Source of the DNA: Rhina ancylostomus
Lineage: Eukaryota
Length of the DNA stretch: 64,000 nucleotides
Reading direction: 5' to 3'
Assembly (NCBI GenBank): GCA_030265395.1
Contig: JARFYF010000084.1
Span: 64,641,681-64,705,680 of the forward strand
Each line of letters begins with the position of its first letter. Positions within the stretch are counted from its first letter, which is position 1. The notes under the pieces were generated by a model. That model saw only the letters and a program-made list of their open reading frames with translations. It was not told the origin of the DNA and did not search any database. A program made the translations under genes and the position numbers. Shown piece after piece: positions 597 to 34,447 of this stretch.

Positions 597-819
597 GCAA
601 TGGTGAATGTAAAGGAGGGGAATGCCACTGCTACTCGGGCTGGCATGGTGAAAGCTGTAACTGTTCTTCATCCCTGATGTCCTGCAGGACAGACCAGGGT
701 CAGATCTGCAGTGGAAGAGGGATGTGTCTCTGCGGCAGTTGTCATTGCACTGATTCCAGAGCCTCCGGCCCTTTGTGCGAGGTTTGCCCAACGTGTGAAA
801 ATTCCTGTGAAAATAGCCG
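597..819 (+). CDS. ITGB8: Integrin beta-8 exon: I-EGF3/I-EGF4 and start of beta-tail
   Basis: ttgcag|...cg|gtatgc, phase 1->2; (G)NGECKGGECHCYSGWHGESCNC...QICSGRGMCLCGSCHCTDSRASGPLCEVCPTCENSCENS; cysteine spacing matches beta-integrin EGF repeats and the beta-8 QVCSGRG...CTD...CPTC pattern. Confidence 0.93.
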
Positions 820-3797: not shown

Positions 3798-3895
3798 GAA
3801 GTGTGTACAGTGTCATGTATTGAACTACTGGGCAGTGTATCCTGCCAATTGCAGCACCTCATGTTCTCAAATGATGGTAGTGGACCAGATTTCAG
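3798..3895 (+). CDS. ITGB8: Integrin beta-8 exon: N-terminal half of beta-tail domain
   Basis: tttctag|g aag tgt gta cag tgt...att tca g|gtatt, phase 2->1; KCVQCHVLNYWAVYPANCSTSCSQMMVVDQIS resembles beta-8 NCMQC...CKTSC...VDQTS. Confidence 0.9.
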
Positions 3896-4906
3896 GTATT
3901 TGTTGCTTTCTGTATTTTGCTGTTTTGTAATATGGGGGGCTTACAACATGAGTTAAGATTTTTACATCTGCAGTATGATCAAGAAGACTGTTTACAGAAA
4001 TGCATACTGCCTAGGGGGCTCTGCTTCAGTGTTTTTTGTAACTACCTCCCAACTACTGTCCCAGTTCCTGCCACTCCGTTATGATCAACCCAGACTGCCA
4101 GAGTTTGGCACTAGGTTCACTTTATTCCTTTAGACCAGTACTGCTTGTATGTAACATTCTAAATGAGCAACCTCAATGTATTAATGGTATCAACATAAAG
4201 TAAATGTTCAGGAAATGACTGAGCATGAAAGATCTGATTCAACATAATCTTTATAACATAGAAGCCAATACTGCAGGTTAAGCAGTATCTGTGGGTAGGG
4301 AAGAAGAGTTAACATTTCAAGCAATGATCTTTCATGATGATTTAGGTATAACAAAACATGGTATTGTGGCAGAATGGAACGCATTCTTATCGTAAAATGG
4401 TTTGAATATCGCTTAAATTCTTAGATAATAATTGTATAATCACAACAAAAAGAAAAGAAGCAATAAGCAATACTTTCATTCTCAGTAGAGAGGCAAAATT
4501 GACAATATTGGATCACTCACCACCCACCCTCTTAAATGTGTTCCATTGATTTTTAGTCTGTTAAGTTATATAAAGGTCAGTCATTCAATGTTGTTTGGTT
4601 TATCCCATGAGTAATGTTGATTGTCTGTTAACTTCACTGGAACTGAATTTCAGATGTAAAGTACCCATAATTATGTTATAACATATTTAGATCATGCAAC
4701 CGAGGGCAAAAGTTGGCCTCACAGTTCACCAAAAAAAACAAAGGTTTTTCAAATCACCTGATGGGAATCTGGAGAAATACATTGGAGACCTGTGCTATCA
4801 ATCTCATTGATTTTGTATTCAAGGAAATGATATGAGAAACCTTCGGTGGAAGATGATCAACACCCTGTTTTGTTAATTATGTCATTATTTTATATTTCAT
4901 TATCAG

Positions 4907-5026
4907 AATCTGAGGAAGAAAAATCACAACACTGTGTTTTTCAAGCAAATGATAAATGGTTATATAAATTTAAAATGGTAGCAACTAACACTGAAAAAGA
5001 ACTTCTTTACATATTGAAAAACCCAG
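4907..5026 (+). CDS. ITGB8: Integrin beta-8 exon: C-terminal half of beta-tail domain (absent from mammalian beta-8)
   Basis: tatcag|aa...cca g|gtgagt, 120 nt, phase 1->1, open; (E)SEEEKSQHCVFQANDKWLYKFKMVATNTEKELLYILKNP(E) aligns without gaps to the beta-3/beta-1 beta-tail C-terminus. Confidence 0.82.
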
Positions 5027-5810
5027 GTGAGTCTTTTTATGTAATTGTACAAGAGCATTAGGCAAGACTGAGTTCTTAATCAGTTCTTCACAGTTGATAC
5101 TTGTGTTATATTTAATTACTTTCAATACATTTTCGTTTAGCTTTATCGATTATTTCATGTCATAGAGTCATACATCACAGAAACACATCAAGCATCAAGT
5201 ACCCGTCTGTATTAATCCCATTTACTAGCACATGGTCCAGAGCATTCCACTGCTTGCCTTTTTAGAGATTGACAATGTAAATGTGAGAGCAGAGTGGAAA
5301 TTGGCAGCAAGTGAAGACATTTTCAAGTTCTCTTTGGGTGCAGAATGTTGCATCATTGCAGTCAATTGTGTCCAGTCATTGCAGAAAGGGTTGTGGAAGT
5401 GGTCCCAAATAAGCCTGGATTGTTCCATGTATCCAACAAAAAGACAGGTGTCCTTATTATTGCCAATTTAACTCATTTTACTGACTGTGTTGGCCACCTC
5501 CTTAACAGTACTCTCTAGCAGTGCATTCCAGCTTACTTTTGCTTCTATTTAGGACATACAATGCTGTGCCTACCAGAAAACTGATTTGTAGGCAGATTGT
5601 GATATCAGTGCATGCATATTTTTGCTTTGAAGACCACTAGATTGAAGGTTACTGCCAGCTGGCTCCCTTAATTTTGCAGTTAGTACCCTCTCGTGATCTT
5701 GCAGTTATCACTCACTCCTAATCTCACATTAACATGAAAATAAAATATTTATTTTCCAGTGCATCAATTTTAACCAGTAAAATGGGTAAAATATTGATTT
5801 TAGATCCAAG

Positions 5811-8800
5811 ATTCGGAGCGGGACCTTTGAAAAGAGGTGAGTCTCCAAGCGTGTGCTTGCGAGTTTCATTGTGTCAGAGTCTAAATGAGGCACATTTGCA
5901 AATTGTTAANNNNNNNNNNNNNNNNNNNNNNNNNNNNNNNNNNNNNNNNNNNNNNNNNNNNNNNNNNNNNNNNNNNNNNNNNNNNNNNNNNNNNNNNNNN
6001 NNNNNNNNNNNNNNNNNNNNNNNNNNNNNNNNNNNNNNNNNNNNNNNNNNNNNNNNNNNNNNNNNNNNNNNNNNNNNNNNNNNNNNNNNNNNNNNNNNNN
6101 NNNNNNNNNNNNNNNNNNNNNNNNNNNNNNNNNNNNNNNNNNNNNNNNNNNNNNNNNNNNNNNNNNNNNNNNNNNNNNNNNNNNNNNNNNNNNNNNNNNN
6201 NNNNNNNNNNNNNNNNNNNNNNNNNNNNNNNNNNNNNNNNNNNNNNNNNNNNNNNNNNNNNNNNNNNNNNNNNNNNNNNNNNNNNNNNNNNNNNNNNNNN
6301 NNNNNNNNNNNNNNNNNNNNNNNNNNNNNNNNNNNNNNNNNNNNNNNNNNNNNNNNNNNNNNNNNNNNNNNNNNNNNNNNNNNNNNNNNNNNNNNNNNNN
6401 NNNNNNNNNNNNNNNNNNNNNNNNNNNNNNNNNNNNNNNNNNNNNNNNNNAACAACCTAGCAGAGGACAGCCGCAGTGCCCAGGTCTCTGGCACTGAGCC
6501 TGGTTGTGTGGCGCAGAAGGGAAGGGAAGAGAAGAGGAGACCAGTAGTGATAGGGAGTTCCATAGTAAGGGGGACAGATAGGAGATTCTGTGTACGTGAA
6601 AGAGACTCCTGGATGGTATGTTGCCTCCTGGGTTCCAAGGTCAGGGATGTCTCATATTGGGCCCACAGCATTCTGAAGGGGGAGGGTGAACAACCAGAGG
6701 TTGTGGTGCATACTGGTACCAATGACATAGGTAGGAAAAGAGATGAGGTCCTGAAGAGGGAATATAGGGAGCTTGGTAGCAAGCTGAAAAGCAGGGCCTC
6801 ATGGGTAGTAATCTCTGGATTGCTGCCTGTGCTACGTGCCAATGAGGGTAAGAATAGGATAATTTGGCAGATGAATGTGTGGCTGAGGAGATGGTGTAGG
6901 GGGCAAGGGTTCAGATTTGTTGATCATTGGGATCACTTTTGAGGAAGGTATGACCTGTACAAAAGGGACAGGTTACACCTGAACTGGAGGGAGACCGATA
7001 TTCTTGTGGGCAGGTTTGCTAGAACTGTTGGGGAAGGTTTAAACTAGTTTGGCAGGAGGATGGCTACCAGAGGGATAGGTCAGAGGTTGGTACCTTTAGT
7101 GTACAAGTGGATGCAGCATGTAAAAAGACTGTGAGGAAGGATAGTCAGTTGAAAAATTGCAGTCAGTTGGATGAGCTGAAGTGTGTCTACTTTAATGTAA
7201 GAAATACAAGAACAAGAGTGATGAACTTAGAGTGTGGGTAAGTACATGGAACTATGATGTGGTGGCCATTACAGTTACTTGGCTGGCACAAGAGCAGGAA
7301 TGGCTGCTGGATATTCTGGGGTTTAGATGTTTCAAAAGGGACAGGCACAGAGGTAAAAGAGGTGGGGGAGCGGCTTTGCTGATGAGGGGCAGTGTCACAG
7401 CTGTAGAAATGGAGGACATCCTGGAGGGATCGTCTCTTGAGTCAGTGGGGGTGGAAGTCAGAAACAGGAAAGGAGCAATTGCTCTATTGGGAGTATTTTA
7501 CAGAACCCCCAATAGCAGCAGAGACACTGAGGAGCAGATCAGGAGGCAGATTTTGGAGAGAGGCAAAAATAACAGGGTTGTTGTCGTGGGTGATTTCAAC
7601 TTCCCTAGTATTGATTGGCACCTCCTTAGCATAAAGGCGATAGATGTGGCAGAGTTTGTTAGGTGTGTCCAGGTAGGATTCCTGACACAGTATGTGGACG
7701 GGCTGACTAGAGGAGAGGCCATACTGGATCTGATACCAGGCAATAAGCCTGATCAGGTTTCAGATCTCTCAGTGGGAGAGCATTTTGGAGATAGTGACCA
7801 TAACTCCTTGACCTTTACCATAGCCTTGGAGGGGGATAGGAGCAGATGATATGGGACAGTATTTAACTGGGGGAACAGGAATTATGATGCTATTAGGCAG
7901 GAACTTGGGACTGTAAATTGGGAATAAACATTTGGGGAAGTGCAAAGCAGAAATGTGGAGGTTGTTTAAGGAATACTTGAATGGGTTTCTGGATAGGTTT
8001 GTTCCTTAAGGCAAGGTAAGGATGGTAGAGTGAAGGAACCATGGTTCACAAGAGATGTAGAATAGCTTATCAAGATGAAGAAAGAAGTTTACCTAAGGTT
8101 CAGAAAGCATGGATCTGAGAGTTACAAGGTAGCCAGGAGGAAGTTTAAGAATGGGCTTAGGAGAGCTAGAAGGGGGCTTGAGAAGACCTTGGAGAGTAGG
8201 ATTAAGGGAAGCCCCAAGGCATTCTACACCTATGTGAAGAATAGGAGGACGACTAGAGTGAGGTTGGACCGATCAGGGATAAAAGAGGAAATGTGCCTGG
8301 AATTGGAAGAGGTGGGGAAGGTCATAAATGAATACTGCGCTTCAGTATTCACCAGAGAGAAAGACCTTGAAATTTGTGAGGATGGCGTACAACAGGCTGA
8401 TATGCTAGGGCATGTTGACGTGAGGAAAGTGGATGTGCTGGAACTTTTGAAAAACGTTAAGATAGATAAGTCACTGGGGCTGGATGGGATATACCCAAGG
8501 TTATTGCAGGAAGCGAGGGAAGAGATTGCTGCACCTTTGGCGATGATCTTTGCATCCTCACTGGCCACAGGAGTGGTGCCAGTTGATTGGAGGGTGGCAA
8601 ATGTTGTTCCTTCTTTCAAGAAAGGGAGTAGGGATAACCCTGGGAATTACAGACCAGTGANNNNNNNNNNNNNNNNNNNNNNNNNNNNNNNNNNNNNNNN
8701 NNNNNNNNNNNNNNNNNNNNNNNNNNNNNNNNNNNNNNNNNNNNNNNNNNNNNNNNNNNNNNNNNNNNNNNNNNNNNNNNNNNNNNNNNNNNNNNNNNNN

Positions 8801-10002
8801 NNNNNNNNNNNNNNNNNNNNNNNNNNNNNNNNNNNNNNNNNNNNNNNNNNNNNNNNNNNNNNNNNNNNNNNNNNNNNNNNNNNNNNNNNNNNNNNNNNNN
8901 NNNNNNNNNNNNNNNNNNNNNNNNNNNNNNNNNNNNNNNNNNNNNNNNNNNNNNNNNNNNNNNNNNNNNNNNNNNNNNNNNNNNNNNNNNNNNNNNNNNN
9001 NNNNNNNNNNNNNNNNNNNNNNNNNNNNNNNNNNNNNNNNNNNNNNNNNNNNNNNNNNNNNNNNNNNNNNNNNNNNNNNNNNNNNNNNNNNNNNNNNNNN
9101 NNNNNNNNNNNNNNNNNNNNNNNNNNNNNNNNNNNNNNNNNNNNNNNNNNNNNNNNNNNNNNNNNNNNNNNNNNNNNNNNNNNNNNNNNNNNNNNNNNNN
9201 NNNNNNNNNNNNNNNNNNNNNNNNNNNNNNNNNNNNNNNNNNNNNNNNNNNNNNNNNNNNNNNNNNNNNNNNNNNNNNNNNNNNNNNNNNNNNNNNNNNN
9301 NNNNNNNNNNNNNNNNNNNNNNNNNNNNNNNNNNNNNNNNNNNNNNNNNNNNNNNNNNNNNNNNNNNNNNNNNNNNNNNNNNNNNNNNNNNNNNNNNNNN
9401 NNNNNNNNNGAGTTCAAGAGCTGCAAGGTAATGTTGCAGCTCTATCGAGCTCTGGTTAGACCACACTAGGAGTATTGTGTTCAGTTAAGGTTGCCTCATT
9501 ATAGGAGGATGTGGAGGCTTTGGAGAGGGTGCAGAGGAGATTTACCAGGATGCTGCCTGGATTGGAGAGTATGTCTAATAAGGACAGGTTGAGTGAGCTT
9601 GGGCTTTTCTCTTTGGAAAGAAGGATGATGAGATGTGACTTGATAGAGGTGTACAAGATAATAAGAGGTATTGATCGAGTGGACAGTCAGAGACTTTTCC
9701 CAAGGTGAAAATGGCTAACACAAGGAAGCATAATTTTAAGGTGACTGGAGGAAGGTTATAAGGGGGATGTCAGGGGTAAGTTTTTTTTACAGTGGTGAGT
9801 GCGTGGAAAACTGCCAGCAGAGGTTGTGGGGACAGATACATTAGAGACATTTAAGATACTCTTGGATAGCCACGTGAATGATAGAAAAATGGAGGGCTAT
9901 GTGGGAGGGGAGGGTTAGATAGATATTAGAGCAGGATAAAATGTTGGCACAACATTGTGGGCCGAAGGGCCTGTACTGTACTGTAATGTTCTATGTCCTA
10001 TG
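5811..10002 (+). mobile_element. Near full-length CR1 LINE (ORF1 SGNH-esterase; ORF2 AP endonuclease + RT), inactivated, inside an ITGB8 intron
   Basis: ORF1 VVIGSSIVRG...VVHTGTND...VVISGLLP (6451-7047); APE YDVVAITVTW, GVFYRTPN, VVGDFNFP, SDHN; RT KSLGLDGIYPRLL, DWRVANVVPSFKKG, NYRPV; C-terminal LERVQRRFTRM; gtgggccgaagggcctg tail; stops and frameshifts; two internal gaps. Confidence 0.92.
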
Positions 10003-10510
10003 ACTGTTTTCATTGAACAAGCAGTAAAAGGAAATGTAGAGTTTAGACTGATTTTTCAAAATGTAGGAGCTAGAAGAATATAATCTTATGATGCTGTGAA
10101 GTAGTAGAATTGATTGCTATTGGTAATGATTAAAGCTGGTATGATTGTACTTAACAGCATTTAAGAACAGATTAGAAGGATTGAAGGAAAGAAGAATAAA
10201 AGATGTGTCAATACTGTAACTGCATGGGATGTAGGGGCATTAATCACCCACACATGCTGCTTAGGTTGAATAGCTGTTTCCTTAAAGTACTTCCCATGTA
10301 ATTTATGCTGGTCCTTATTTCTAATGTTTATCTTTTGAAATTACTAGTGTTTTATTCATATGTTAATCAGCAGAATGTCCTTTCAATGGTGATAAGTAAA
10401 GCAATTGAGANNNNNNNNNNNNNNNNNNNNNNNNNNNNNNNNNNNNNNNNNNNNNNNNNNNNNNNNNNNNNNNNNNNNNNNNNNNNNNNNNNNNNNNNNN
10501 NNNNNNNNNN

Positions 10511-11110
10511 GCAATGGAACCTGTGTTAGTATTTGCTTTGACTGCAAGTGGCGAAATAGTGTTACAATTACCTAGGGTATTGGTGTGGCCACACCTGGAA
10601 CACTGTTTAAGAAAGGATCTGCTAGTATTGGAAGCAGTCTAGTACAGATTCACTCAGCTAACTCCTGGGAGAGGGTTGTCCTATCATGAGCAGGTAAAGA
10701 AATCAGATCTATGTTCTTTGGAGTTTAGAATAATGAGAGTTGATCTTATTGACATGTATAATATTCTGAGGGGGGCCATGACAGGGTAGATGTCAAGATG
10801 TTTGAGATAAATTCGAGTGAGGGGACTTAATTACAAGGTAAGATGTTCATTTAAAACTGAGATAAGAAGGAACTTCTCACAGAGGATGGCGAATCCTGAG
10901 AATTCTCTACCCAGAGGTTTGTGAAGGTTAGATCATTCAAAAAGAAGATAGACACATTTTTGAAACACTGGGCAATGGAGAGCAGTGGGGAACTGGCACT
11001 CAGGAGGAAGTGAGGCCTGGGCAGATTAGCCACAATTATATTGAATGACTGGGGAGGTTTGAGGAGCAGAGTGGCCTACTCCTGCTCCTGTTTTCGTATG
11101 TTCTTCTGTT
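10511..11110 (+). mobile_element. 5'-truncated CR1 LINE 3' fragment (older subfamily)
   Basis: gccacacctggaacactg, ctttggagtttagaa and terminal gtggcctactcctgctcctg motif. Confidence 0.75.
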
Positions 11111-11263
11111 CCAATAGTTCCAATATGGCTTGCTGCATAATTAATAATATTTATTAATATTTTGCTAAGGTGATTAATCCTAAAATTCCTAGTCATTTTA
11201 TTAATGCTGAACTCCAATAAGCTCTCCAGGCTTGTTTGATATTTTTCTCCACTTGAACAGTCC

Positions 11264-11360
11264 AAGTGTTGGTAAATGGGATTAGTGTAGATGAATAATT
11301 AACAGTCAGCATGGATATGGTGGGCTGAAGGGCCTGTTTCTCTGAAGTATGACGTTATGG
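11264..11360 (+). mobile_element. CR1/HE1-type 3' tail
   Basis: ggtaaatgggattagtgtag...gtgggctgaagggcctgtttc. Confidence 0.65.
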
Positions 11361-12173
11361 CATGAGTTCAAAACTTGTAACGGAAGTGCTGATAGCAAAA
11401 TTCTGCACCACAAGTGCAAATCTGGAGAATTACCAGCTGTGGTTTGAAGTGATCACCTTAAGGGAGTTCTCTCAATGTACTATTAATAAAGCTTTAACAT
11501 TAATATGCTTATAATCTAGAAATATTGCTTTGATTCTACAATGAAACCTCAACTTATGAAACTTGATTTATGTTTGCATTCCCTCAATAATACTAATCTA
11601 TAAAAGTGCTTGGAAACCACTTGAGTCCCATGTTAATTTGGCCTTTTTCAATTATATGACAGCACTAAAAAAGGGGACTGCTCTCCACATGAATGCTAGT
11701 GAATGTAGAAGCAAATTTATCAAACTGAAAGGGAATGACAGACTACTGCTGTTAATTTGAAGTCATGGTTTGTACAAAAAAATTGAGTTATTTAAATTTT
11801 ATTTAAACAAGCTTTAAAAAACTTTATTATCATCTTTACTGAACAAGTTCTAATTTAACTTAACAGATGATTTGAATTCAGTAATTTTGAATACAGAGTA
11901 GTACTTATAACCATAGTAATCTGTAAATACACACAACAAAAGTTGTGTTCTGAAGACCTGAATTTGTTTTATTTATAATCCAATGAGTTGTAATTTATAA
12001 AATTAGTGATTTATTGTGATTATAAATTCAGCATAAATTAATTTAGATCATTTCAAATATTTCTGAACATCGAATTACAGTAATTACACAAGATTTGAAG
12101 TGAATTTAAGTGTGTGAAACACTTCTGTTCTTAGATCCAACTCCAATCTCTAATTTATATTATTATTTTCCAG

Positions 12174-12340
12174 AATACTATTCTAGACACAAGATTCTTG
12201 CAACATTTCTTATCTTCTCTGTTGGTACAGTTATCACAGGATTAATCATTGTGATGGTAATCAGGCAGATAATGATGCACTGGAATTCAAGTGAACCAAC
12301 TCACCCTGGAAACAATTGCAAACTATCTACTCCACAAAAG
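12174..12340 (+). CDS. ITGB8: Integrin beta-8 exon: transmembrane helix and membrane-proximal cytoplasmic region
   Basis: ttttccag|aa tac...caa aag|gtagaa, phase 1->0; ILATFLIFSVGTVITGLIIVMVIRQIMMHWNS matches the beta-8-specific IIRQVILQWNS; no HDRRE motif as in other betas. Confidence 0.92.
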
Positions 12341-12470
12341 GTAGAACTCATAGGTTATAGATTTACAAGTAGCCAGAAAGTTTAAAGTTGTTTAGATTAT
12401 TTCTGGTAATTCATTATGATGGAAATATGCTGATATAAACTACTGAGGGTGTAAATTTATTTTTTTAAAG

Positions 12471-12585
12471 AAGGAACTCCTTTACTGATAGTTCAAATAC
12501 TATAGTTTGCAAGCATAACAAATCAGAGGAACTTCATGTGTATGTCAATAAAGTGCAAGTAATTCAGAACATAGAATTGCAATAG
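12471..12585 (+). CDS. ITGB8: Probable terminal ITGB8 coding exon (cytoplasmic tail), with an apparent 1-nt frame discrepancy
   Basis: acceptor tttttttaaag at 12470; frame ending TAG 12583-12585 reads SSNTIVCKHNKSEELHVYVNKVQVIQNIELQ*, similar to beta-8 EKPEEIKMDISKLNA; phase-0 splicing gives only KELLY*. Confidence 0.55.
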
Positions 12586-34290: not shown

Positions 34291-34447
34291 TTTCACTTTG
34301 CTGATGGATTCGACTTCCTGATGATAACAATAGGAGTGATTAGTGCAGTAGCACAAGGGATCTCTTTGGAGCTCATGATCATTGTCTTTGGACAGTTGAC
34401 TAACAGTTTTGTCTTCAGCGGAACTCCCCAGAATATCTCTAATGCAG
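34291..34447 (+). CDS. ABCB5: ABCB5 exon: elbow helix and TM1
   Basis: tttatag|ttt cac ttt gct gat...gca g|gtatt; FHFADGFDFLMITIGVISAVAQGISLELMIIVFGQLTNSFV. Confidence 0.93.

Follow-up and report, generated by a model that had tools for sequence, protein, structure and literature searches.

Integrin alphaV-beta8 is the main activator of latent TGF-beta in the brain and a drug target. Its ectodomain is found almost only in the extended state, and the accessible text of PMC6889490 states that the unusual features of its betaI domain do not account for how scarce the bent form is. An excerpt of PMC10518446 describes the beta8 tail as smaller and poorly predicted in AlphaFold, and human ITGB8 is listed with 13 introns against 14 in ITGB3, ITGB5 and ITGB6 (PMC4030831, excerpt). 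The closest described lesion concerns ITGB3, the exon 13 of which measures 120 bp in humans (PMC3865572, excerpt). In dominant macrothrombocytopenia, ITGB3 c.2134+1G>C/A causes skipping of this exon, the same 120-nt in-frame loss as in short beta8, with the integrin still expressed at the surface (excerpts of PMC3865572, PMC3335122 and PMC12780958). Loss of these 120 bp (40 aa) makes transfected cells and the megakaryocytes of patients bind PAC-1 spontaneously (PMC3865572, PMC3335122) and leads to FAK phosphorylation as well (PMC3865572, PMC3335122, PMC12780958), and alphaV-beta3 expression is normal in the patients, as far as these excerpts go. The papers, in their available parts, disagree on numbering the deletion as mature 647-686 or 621-660; since precursor codon 712 begins with c.2134 and corresponds to mature E686, we read it as 647-686, the segment that beta8 lost. 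While the ITGB3 allele is, by the same partial sources, a human disease allele that activates alphaIIb-beta3, the loss in beta8 would be fixed and ancient.

Here we describe the corresponding exon in a ray. The window, that is, the whole stretch of 64,000 nucleotides analysed, contains the features listed below, and ten further exons of the gene lie upstream in the 62 kb preceding it, an assembly gap interrupting one of these.

597..819, plus strand: ITGB8 exon 11 (I-EGF3/4), 223 nt, AG/GT bounded; best PDB match human beta-8 (E 3e-18); joint 819^3798 in runs X1 and X2.
3798..3895, plus strand: ITGB8 exon 12, 98 nt, encoding the N-terminal beta-tail half with its helix, four cysteines and predicted strand A; spliced in both X1 and X2.
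4907..5026, plus strand: ITGB8 exon 13, 120 nt, phase 1-1, predicted beta-tail strands B, C and D with the CD loop; assigned from joints, profile, paralogues and AlphaFold.
12174..12340, plus strand: ITGB8 exon 14 (transmembrane segment and proximal tail), 167 nt, Tyr at the C687 equivalent; joint 5026^12174 in X1 and X2, and 167 nt in three paralogues too.
12341..12385, plus strand: read-through into the former intron 14, 14 residues and a stop, forming the batoid C-terminus; the X1 contig is unspliced from 12170 to 12500.
12470..12585, plus strand: what is left of exon 15, the ancestral last exon, now frameshifted; matched by shark tails in tblastn (E 4e-10).

Exon 13 is open over 40 codons, lies in phase 1-1 between an AG at 4905-4906 and a GT at 5027-5028, and is flanked by an exon ending at 3895 and by the transmembrane exon beginning at 12174, the frame being kept if it is skipped; the earlier note on this DNA had read all of this, including the peptide, correctly. 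It had also proposed looking for the junctions 3895^4907 and 5026^12174. Both are present, together with 819^3798, over GT..AG introns in one contig each of runs X1 (contig depth 60.6) and X2 (contig depth 2.2), which come from one related organism and one study and are presumed to be RNA; the DNA-like runs X3 and X4 carry none of the three, and an exon-skip joint 3895^12174 was not found among the contig joints listed for X1 and X2. When the 297 open phase 1-1 AG..GT candidates in 3896-12173 were scored against a profile built from non-beta8 tails only, the three best scores (12.9, 12.1 and 9.1 bits) all belonged to candidates ending at 5026, with the next at 7.0 bits, and none of 2000 shuffled versions of the exon peptide reached the 12.1 bits of the real one. 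The contig joints, the RefSeq matches and the profile scores with their shuffles rule out a chance open reading frame or a cryptic exon. Thus, 4907-5026 is confirmed as a genuine exon of batoid ITGB8 that is spliced into the message, the splicing being seen in a relative. A search with its peptide returned four RefSeq batoid beta-8 models among five candidates, and the exon is therefore already annotated.

By similarity and by its place in the tree, the window gene is ITGB8, as had been claimed. Its 780-residue model is 89-91% identical to seven batoid models, with identity falling to 82-83% in two sharks, 70% in chimaera and 51-54% in the beta8 of bony vertebrates; against beta3 and beta6 it is 36-39%. 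Its best PDB match is human integrin beta-8 (6uja_B, 8vs6_B, 6djp_B), with 801 bits versus 572 for beta6. A FastTree analysis of 86 rows and 590 columns, with tail columns excluded, included 29 named beta8 rows, nine other matches and representatives of P0239-P0299 with 740-840 residues; it placed the gene within beta8 (support 100) and with the batoids (99), beta6 being the sister group (91). The named beta8 matches included neither lamprey nor hagfish. A position outside the beta8 clade is ruled out by this tree and by the PDB ranking. The ray gene and human ITGB8 also share the absence of the ADMIDAS Asp-Asp pair, a cytoplasmic tail that has no NPxY motif and an ABCB-type gene downstream. 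Positions 8 and 9 of the beta-MIDAS stretch are T and N in the window gene and in 8/8 batoids, whereas the controls read DD in beta6 and beta3 and ND in hagfish, and no beta8 lineage compared has both ADMIDAS aspartates together, a missing pair that the accessible text of PMC6889490 gives as a beta8 trait. NPxY occurs in none of the beta8 cytoplasmic tails aligned, and Pfam Integrin_b_cyt matches beta6 but none of the beta8 proteins scanned. Downstream, exons of an ABCB1/4/5-type transporter occupy 34291-63684 on the plus strand, with the gene starting near 34291 on the same strand as ITGB8, and a bichir model (P0157) fuses beta8 to MDR1; the downstream neighbour expected for ITGB8 is ABCB5, to which this ABCB1/4-like gene may correspond. 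Relative to human beta8, the ray has 40 additional residues, its alignment stopping at chain residue 633 of human beta8 while reaching 686 of beta3, and its distal cytoplasmic tail is replaced by the intron read-through. The eight beta8 chains among the matches listed align only up to residue 421-425, and the leg is thus visible in none of the eight. In the knee region (window gene residues about 456-527; upstream exons 9-10, loci L003-L004 of G000:C84), the ray has 12 cysteines, as do shark, chimaera and bichir and as do beta3 and beta6; the sarcopterygians shown have 6-10 and ray-finned fish other than bichir 7-10, and pLDDT is low in this region.

The earlier note had presented the exon as an extra one missing from mammalian ITGB8. 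Mammals do lack it, but, as judged from its paralogues, it is the ancestral exon 13 of the beta3/5/6/8 class rather than an addition. Indeed, three paralogues in the same genome (G000 C58, C1:36.38M and C1:32.21M), labelled beta3-, beta6- and beta5-like from their similarity to named matches, beta5 by elimination, have a 120-nt phase 1-1 exon followed by a 167-nt transmembrane exon (3/3), and in three beta1/2/7-like paralogues a single match runs through the two halves of the tail. The architecture is that of exon 13 in ITGB3, ITGB5 and ITGB6, which encodes the C-terminal beta-tail (Pfam PF07965), although the ray exon is only about 18-20% identical to these and has no C663-C687 pair. An exon-only beta8 profile run against 46 non-beta8 tails gave E 5.9e-5 over 32 gap-free columns. 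The batoid stretch aligns to human beta3 598-715, with exon 13 falling on beta3 647-686; the gap-free alignment to beta3 that had been claimed holds from the first cysteine onward in phmmer, with one small gap in the acidic N-terminal linker. An insertion specific to chondrichthyans is ruled out, since the exon is common to the paralogues and to ray-finned fish. A beta1-like paralogue, L023 (G000:C84:23880000-23889700, minus strand), has a tail exon but no transmembrane exon within the 9.7 kb examined.

A profile of non-beta8 tails spans positions 1-122 of 126 in the window gene (69 bits) and at most 1-72 in sarcopterygians. The AlphaFold model of the Mobula orthologue (111-row alignment, single chain, pTM 0.52), in which residue 712 aligns to beta3 687, bears out the expectation of a beta-tail fold, with a helix at 633-646 and strands at 663-666, 677-685, 688-696 and 702-707. 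The last three form the exon 13 block, at pLDDT 67-76; in this model, exon 13 encodes three of the four predicted beta-tail strands and most of the beta-tail sheet. In fold searches with the whole model the head dominates, and the tail is hardly tested. The predicted fold of the short form, taken from whale, has a mean pLDDT of 45.6, with the tail below 50. Pfam went the other way: the exon 13 peptide alone had no Integrin_B_tail match and no PDB chain match, PF07965 did not match the whole batoid, shark and chimaera proteins scanned, and exon 12 gave a weak match under the cut-off (positions 8-35 of 88, E 0.012). The model missed six whole chondrichthyan and sturgeon/bichir proteins, and gar scored 32.9 against a gathering cut-off of 33.6; given that eel beta6 was missed as well, the Pfam model is insensitive.

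A canonical beta-tail has eight cysteines, with the pairs C608-C655 and C663-C687 in beta3. The window gene keeps the C655 equivalent and has W at the C663 position and Y at the C687 position, the latter being Tyr in 14/14 chondrichthyans among the matches listed; both equivalents are kept in 7/7 informative non-teleost ray-finned models among the matches listed. The tail called complete in the earlier note is thus complete in length, while by alignment it is not fully canonical, with one disulfide pair (C663-C687) missing. All five sharks (P0006-P0010) keep the C663 equivalent despite Tyr at C687, and carry one more cysteine, in a betaI loop at the place of window gene residue 343 (upstream exon 8); the eight batoids and the chimaera have neither cysteine. 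The extra shark cysteine and C663 could form a head-to-tail disulfide, although few independent events are involved and the corresponding contact in beta3 is made by the CD loop, not by C663.

The distribution of exon 13 was followed in annotated beta8 proteins among the matches listed (103 of 103 in one search, the best 120 of 533 in another). Among these matches, the exon is present in 14/14 chondrichthyan models (8/8 batoids, 5/5 sharks and 1/1 chimaera), in agreement with the conservation that had been predicted, and in 7/8 non-teleost ray-finned models, the eighth being an uninformative fused model. It lies between intact flanks in 48/52 teleost models; of the other four listed, one is chimeric yet has the exon, two are broken here and one, P0185, is without exactly this segment. 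The ray-finned fish that keep it include gar, sturgeon and carps. In contrast, it was found in 0/80 sarcopterygian annotated proteins among the matches listed, which comprise three coelacanth models from one species, one lungfish, seven amphibians, 48 sauropsids and 21 mammals; four of these are truncated or broken at the exon 13 region and three have unrelated inserts or ends. Odd models in the set are P0213 (frameshifted), P0187 (Tamandua, an unrelated 31-residue insert), P0208 and P0209 (aberrant ends), P0191 (broken), and P0216 and P0157 (chimeric). An exon-only HMM run on 159 other proteins gave one match at E <0.01, a teleost-clade beta8, and eight weaker matches at the homologous place that are not significant. 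Because of this weak reach, the count of 0/80 has power for a beta8-like exon only; it also rests on the length gap, the distance from anchor to transmembrane segment being 93-104 residues in fish versus 58-61 in nearly all sarcopterygians.

Since the exon is absent from all sarcopterygian models sampled, coelacanth and lungfish included, a loss specific to mammals is ruled out and the loss probably falls on the lobe-finned stem. We infer that this exon, as exon 13 of ITGB8, very probably disappeared a single time, in the common ancestor of tetrapods and lobe-finned fish. The distribution and the paralogue exons agree with the earlier proposal, and support the reading, that the ancestral gnathostome beta8 had a full-length tail and that the short form arose by clean loss of one exon. 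The 13 sarcopterygian rows form one clade in the FastTree analysis (94). Within beta8, that tree groups chondrichthyans with sarcopterygians (86), contrary to the species tree; one loss suffices under either.

As to how the loss came about, we consider the following course quite probable as a whole. Deletion of the symmetric exon 13 would let the frame survive. The exon holds the equivalents of C655 and C663, the partners of which, C608 and C687, lie in the flanking exons, and its deletion would free these two to pair with each other in a predicted bond of short beta8. Being symmetric, and having both its cysteines partnered outside, the exon may thus have been tolerably lost. C608 and C687 equivalents are both kept in 3/3 coelacanth models, 1/1 lungfish and 7/7 amphibians among the matches listed, and two frogs have only four tail cysteines left (608, 614, 635 and 687), which makes 608-687 the natural pair. 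In frog beta8 (P0224, P0230, P0231, P0233, P0063), neighbouring tail cysteines are further lost, which suggests continued decay of the residual domain.

The functional side is less certain. With exon 13, the beta-tail would pack on the alphaV calf-2 domain and the head as in alphaV-beta3, and the bent state would stay available; in its absence the lower leg would be a small disulfide knot, favouring the extended alphaV-beta8 of mammals. That the loss truly contributes to this extension is, by analogy with ITGB3, possible, yet short of an even chance. Rather unlikely, in our estimate, is the stronger form, in which a lesion of the ITGB3 disease type, fixed in the beta8 of the lobe-finned ancestor, would be a main reason why tetrapod alphaV-beta8 is constitutively extended, and in which shark, ray and zebrafish alphaV-beta8 would still bend and act as conformationally regulated TGF-beta activators. 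The earlier note had pointed to the deadbolt, and the CD loop is indeed predicted within exon 13. However, according to the available part of PMC2733745, deleting just the CD loop changes alphaV-beta3 little and alphaIIb-beta3 not at all, and the inactive state of alphaV-beta3 owes little to beta-tail contacts; the deadbolt is therefore the weaker argument, and whole-exon skipping in ITGB3 the stronger parallel.

We give about even chances to the same history having had no functional effect, with the beta8 of the gnathostome ancestor already independent of talin and prone to extend, the tail sheet dispensable and the loss neutral. Every beta8 lineage is without the ADMIDAS aspartate pair and NPxY, indicating that the atypical head and cytoplasmic tail predate the loss of exon 13. 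Neutrality would also fit the dropping of the C663-C687 pair by chondrichthyans, the small effect of CD-loop deletion in beta3 (PMC2733745, excerpt), the reduced number of knee cysteines in ray-finned fish with the exon (7-12 instead of 12), and the divergence of exon 13 itself: when ray is compared with ray-finned fish, only the signal exon differs more among the ectodomain exons, identity being 25-30% in exon 13 and 38-73% in exons 2-12. Yet the exon is 78% identical between ray and chimaera, more than the 70% of the whole protein, ray-finned fish keep it at full length with both cysteines, and the same deletion activates alphaIIb-beta3 (excerpts of PMC3865572 and PMC3335122).

The history itself has two challengers. 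Exon 13 could be a cassette exon in fish, with a short isoform older than the split and later fixed in sarcopterygians, which we hold to be improbable. Its symmetry would allow this, contigs lose rare variants, and exactly this segment is missing from the teleost model P0185 (Sinocyclocheilus rhinocerous); but P0185 sits on a 605-kb contig and the model of its congener keeps the exon, no skip joint is among the contig joints listed, and the Hemitrygon, Leucoraja, Polyodon and Callorhinchus isoform models that reach the region all include the exon, one Callorhinchus model ending in the intron preceding it. In addition, since C687 is Tyr in chondrichthyans, skipping there would leave C608 orphaned. 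More improbable still is a loss that is younger, on the tetrapod stem, or repeated, with the coelacanth and lungfish models simply missing a diverged exon. The evidence from these two lineages does consist of protein models, and exon 13 diverges fast; however, the tetrapod junction is seen in the lungfish model and in the three coelacanth models, which stem from different rounds of annotation, and in these four the distance from anchor to transmembrane segment is 59-60 residues against 93-104 in fish. A single loss on the lobe-finned stem thus remains the preferred reading.

Part of this is already known, namely the short tail of mammalian beta8 and the presence of the exon in RefSeq fish models: batoid, shark, chimaera and ray-finned 'integrin beta-8' models (e.g. 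XP_055517453.1, XP_062899816.1) include exon 13 with the same structure. We found no remark on the tetrapod difference in the database records of these models, and in our literature search no paper put a date on the truncation, linked it to exon 13 or compared it with the ITGB3 lesion, although an alignment in the main alphaV-beta8 EM papers could already show the loss; the available parts of PMC8275161, PMC3857192 and PMC12383024 held nothing further on beta8. An otherwise ordinary exon would thus reveal, through its distribution, a clean and ancient domain truncation dated to the lobe-finned stem, which bears on an open structural question, and its loss may help explain the extended state of a human TGF-beta-activating integrin. 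Fish beta8 orthologues would provide the control that is lacking, in which an atypical beta8 head sits on a full leg, and a single exon swap can test whether the tail explains the extension of alphaV-beta8. The predicted new C608-C687 bond lies in a region of human beta8 resolved in no listed structure. Caution is due with zebrafish, as its beta8 leg structure differs from that of human beta8.

At its other end, batoid beta8 is apparently missing its last exon (12341-12585). Sharks, chimaera and bony vertebrates retain a conserved distal tail. The 14-residue read-through ending recurs in models of eight batoid species, and two Leucoraja isoform models have a different C-terminal end. The remnant at 12470-12585 needs two frames, its nearest acceptor gives a stop after five codons, and it is matched by X3 without difference and by X4 without a listed indel. 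Ten Logan skate-like proteins (P0111-P0120), nine of them 569 aa long, stop just past exon 10 by running into the intron, and may possibly represent a secreted or an unspliced form. Intron 13 contains, at 6451-10080, pieces of a high-copy LINE-like element with long ORFs, interrupted by assembly gaps and covered at very high depth in all four runs.
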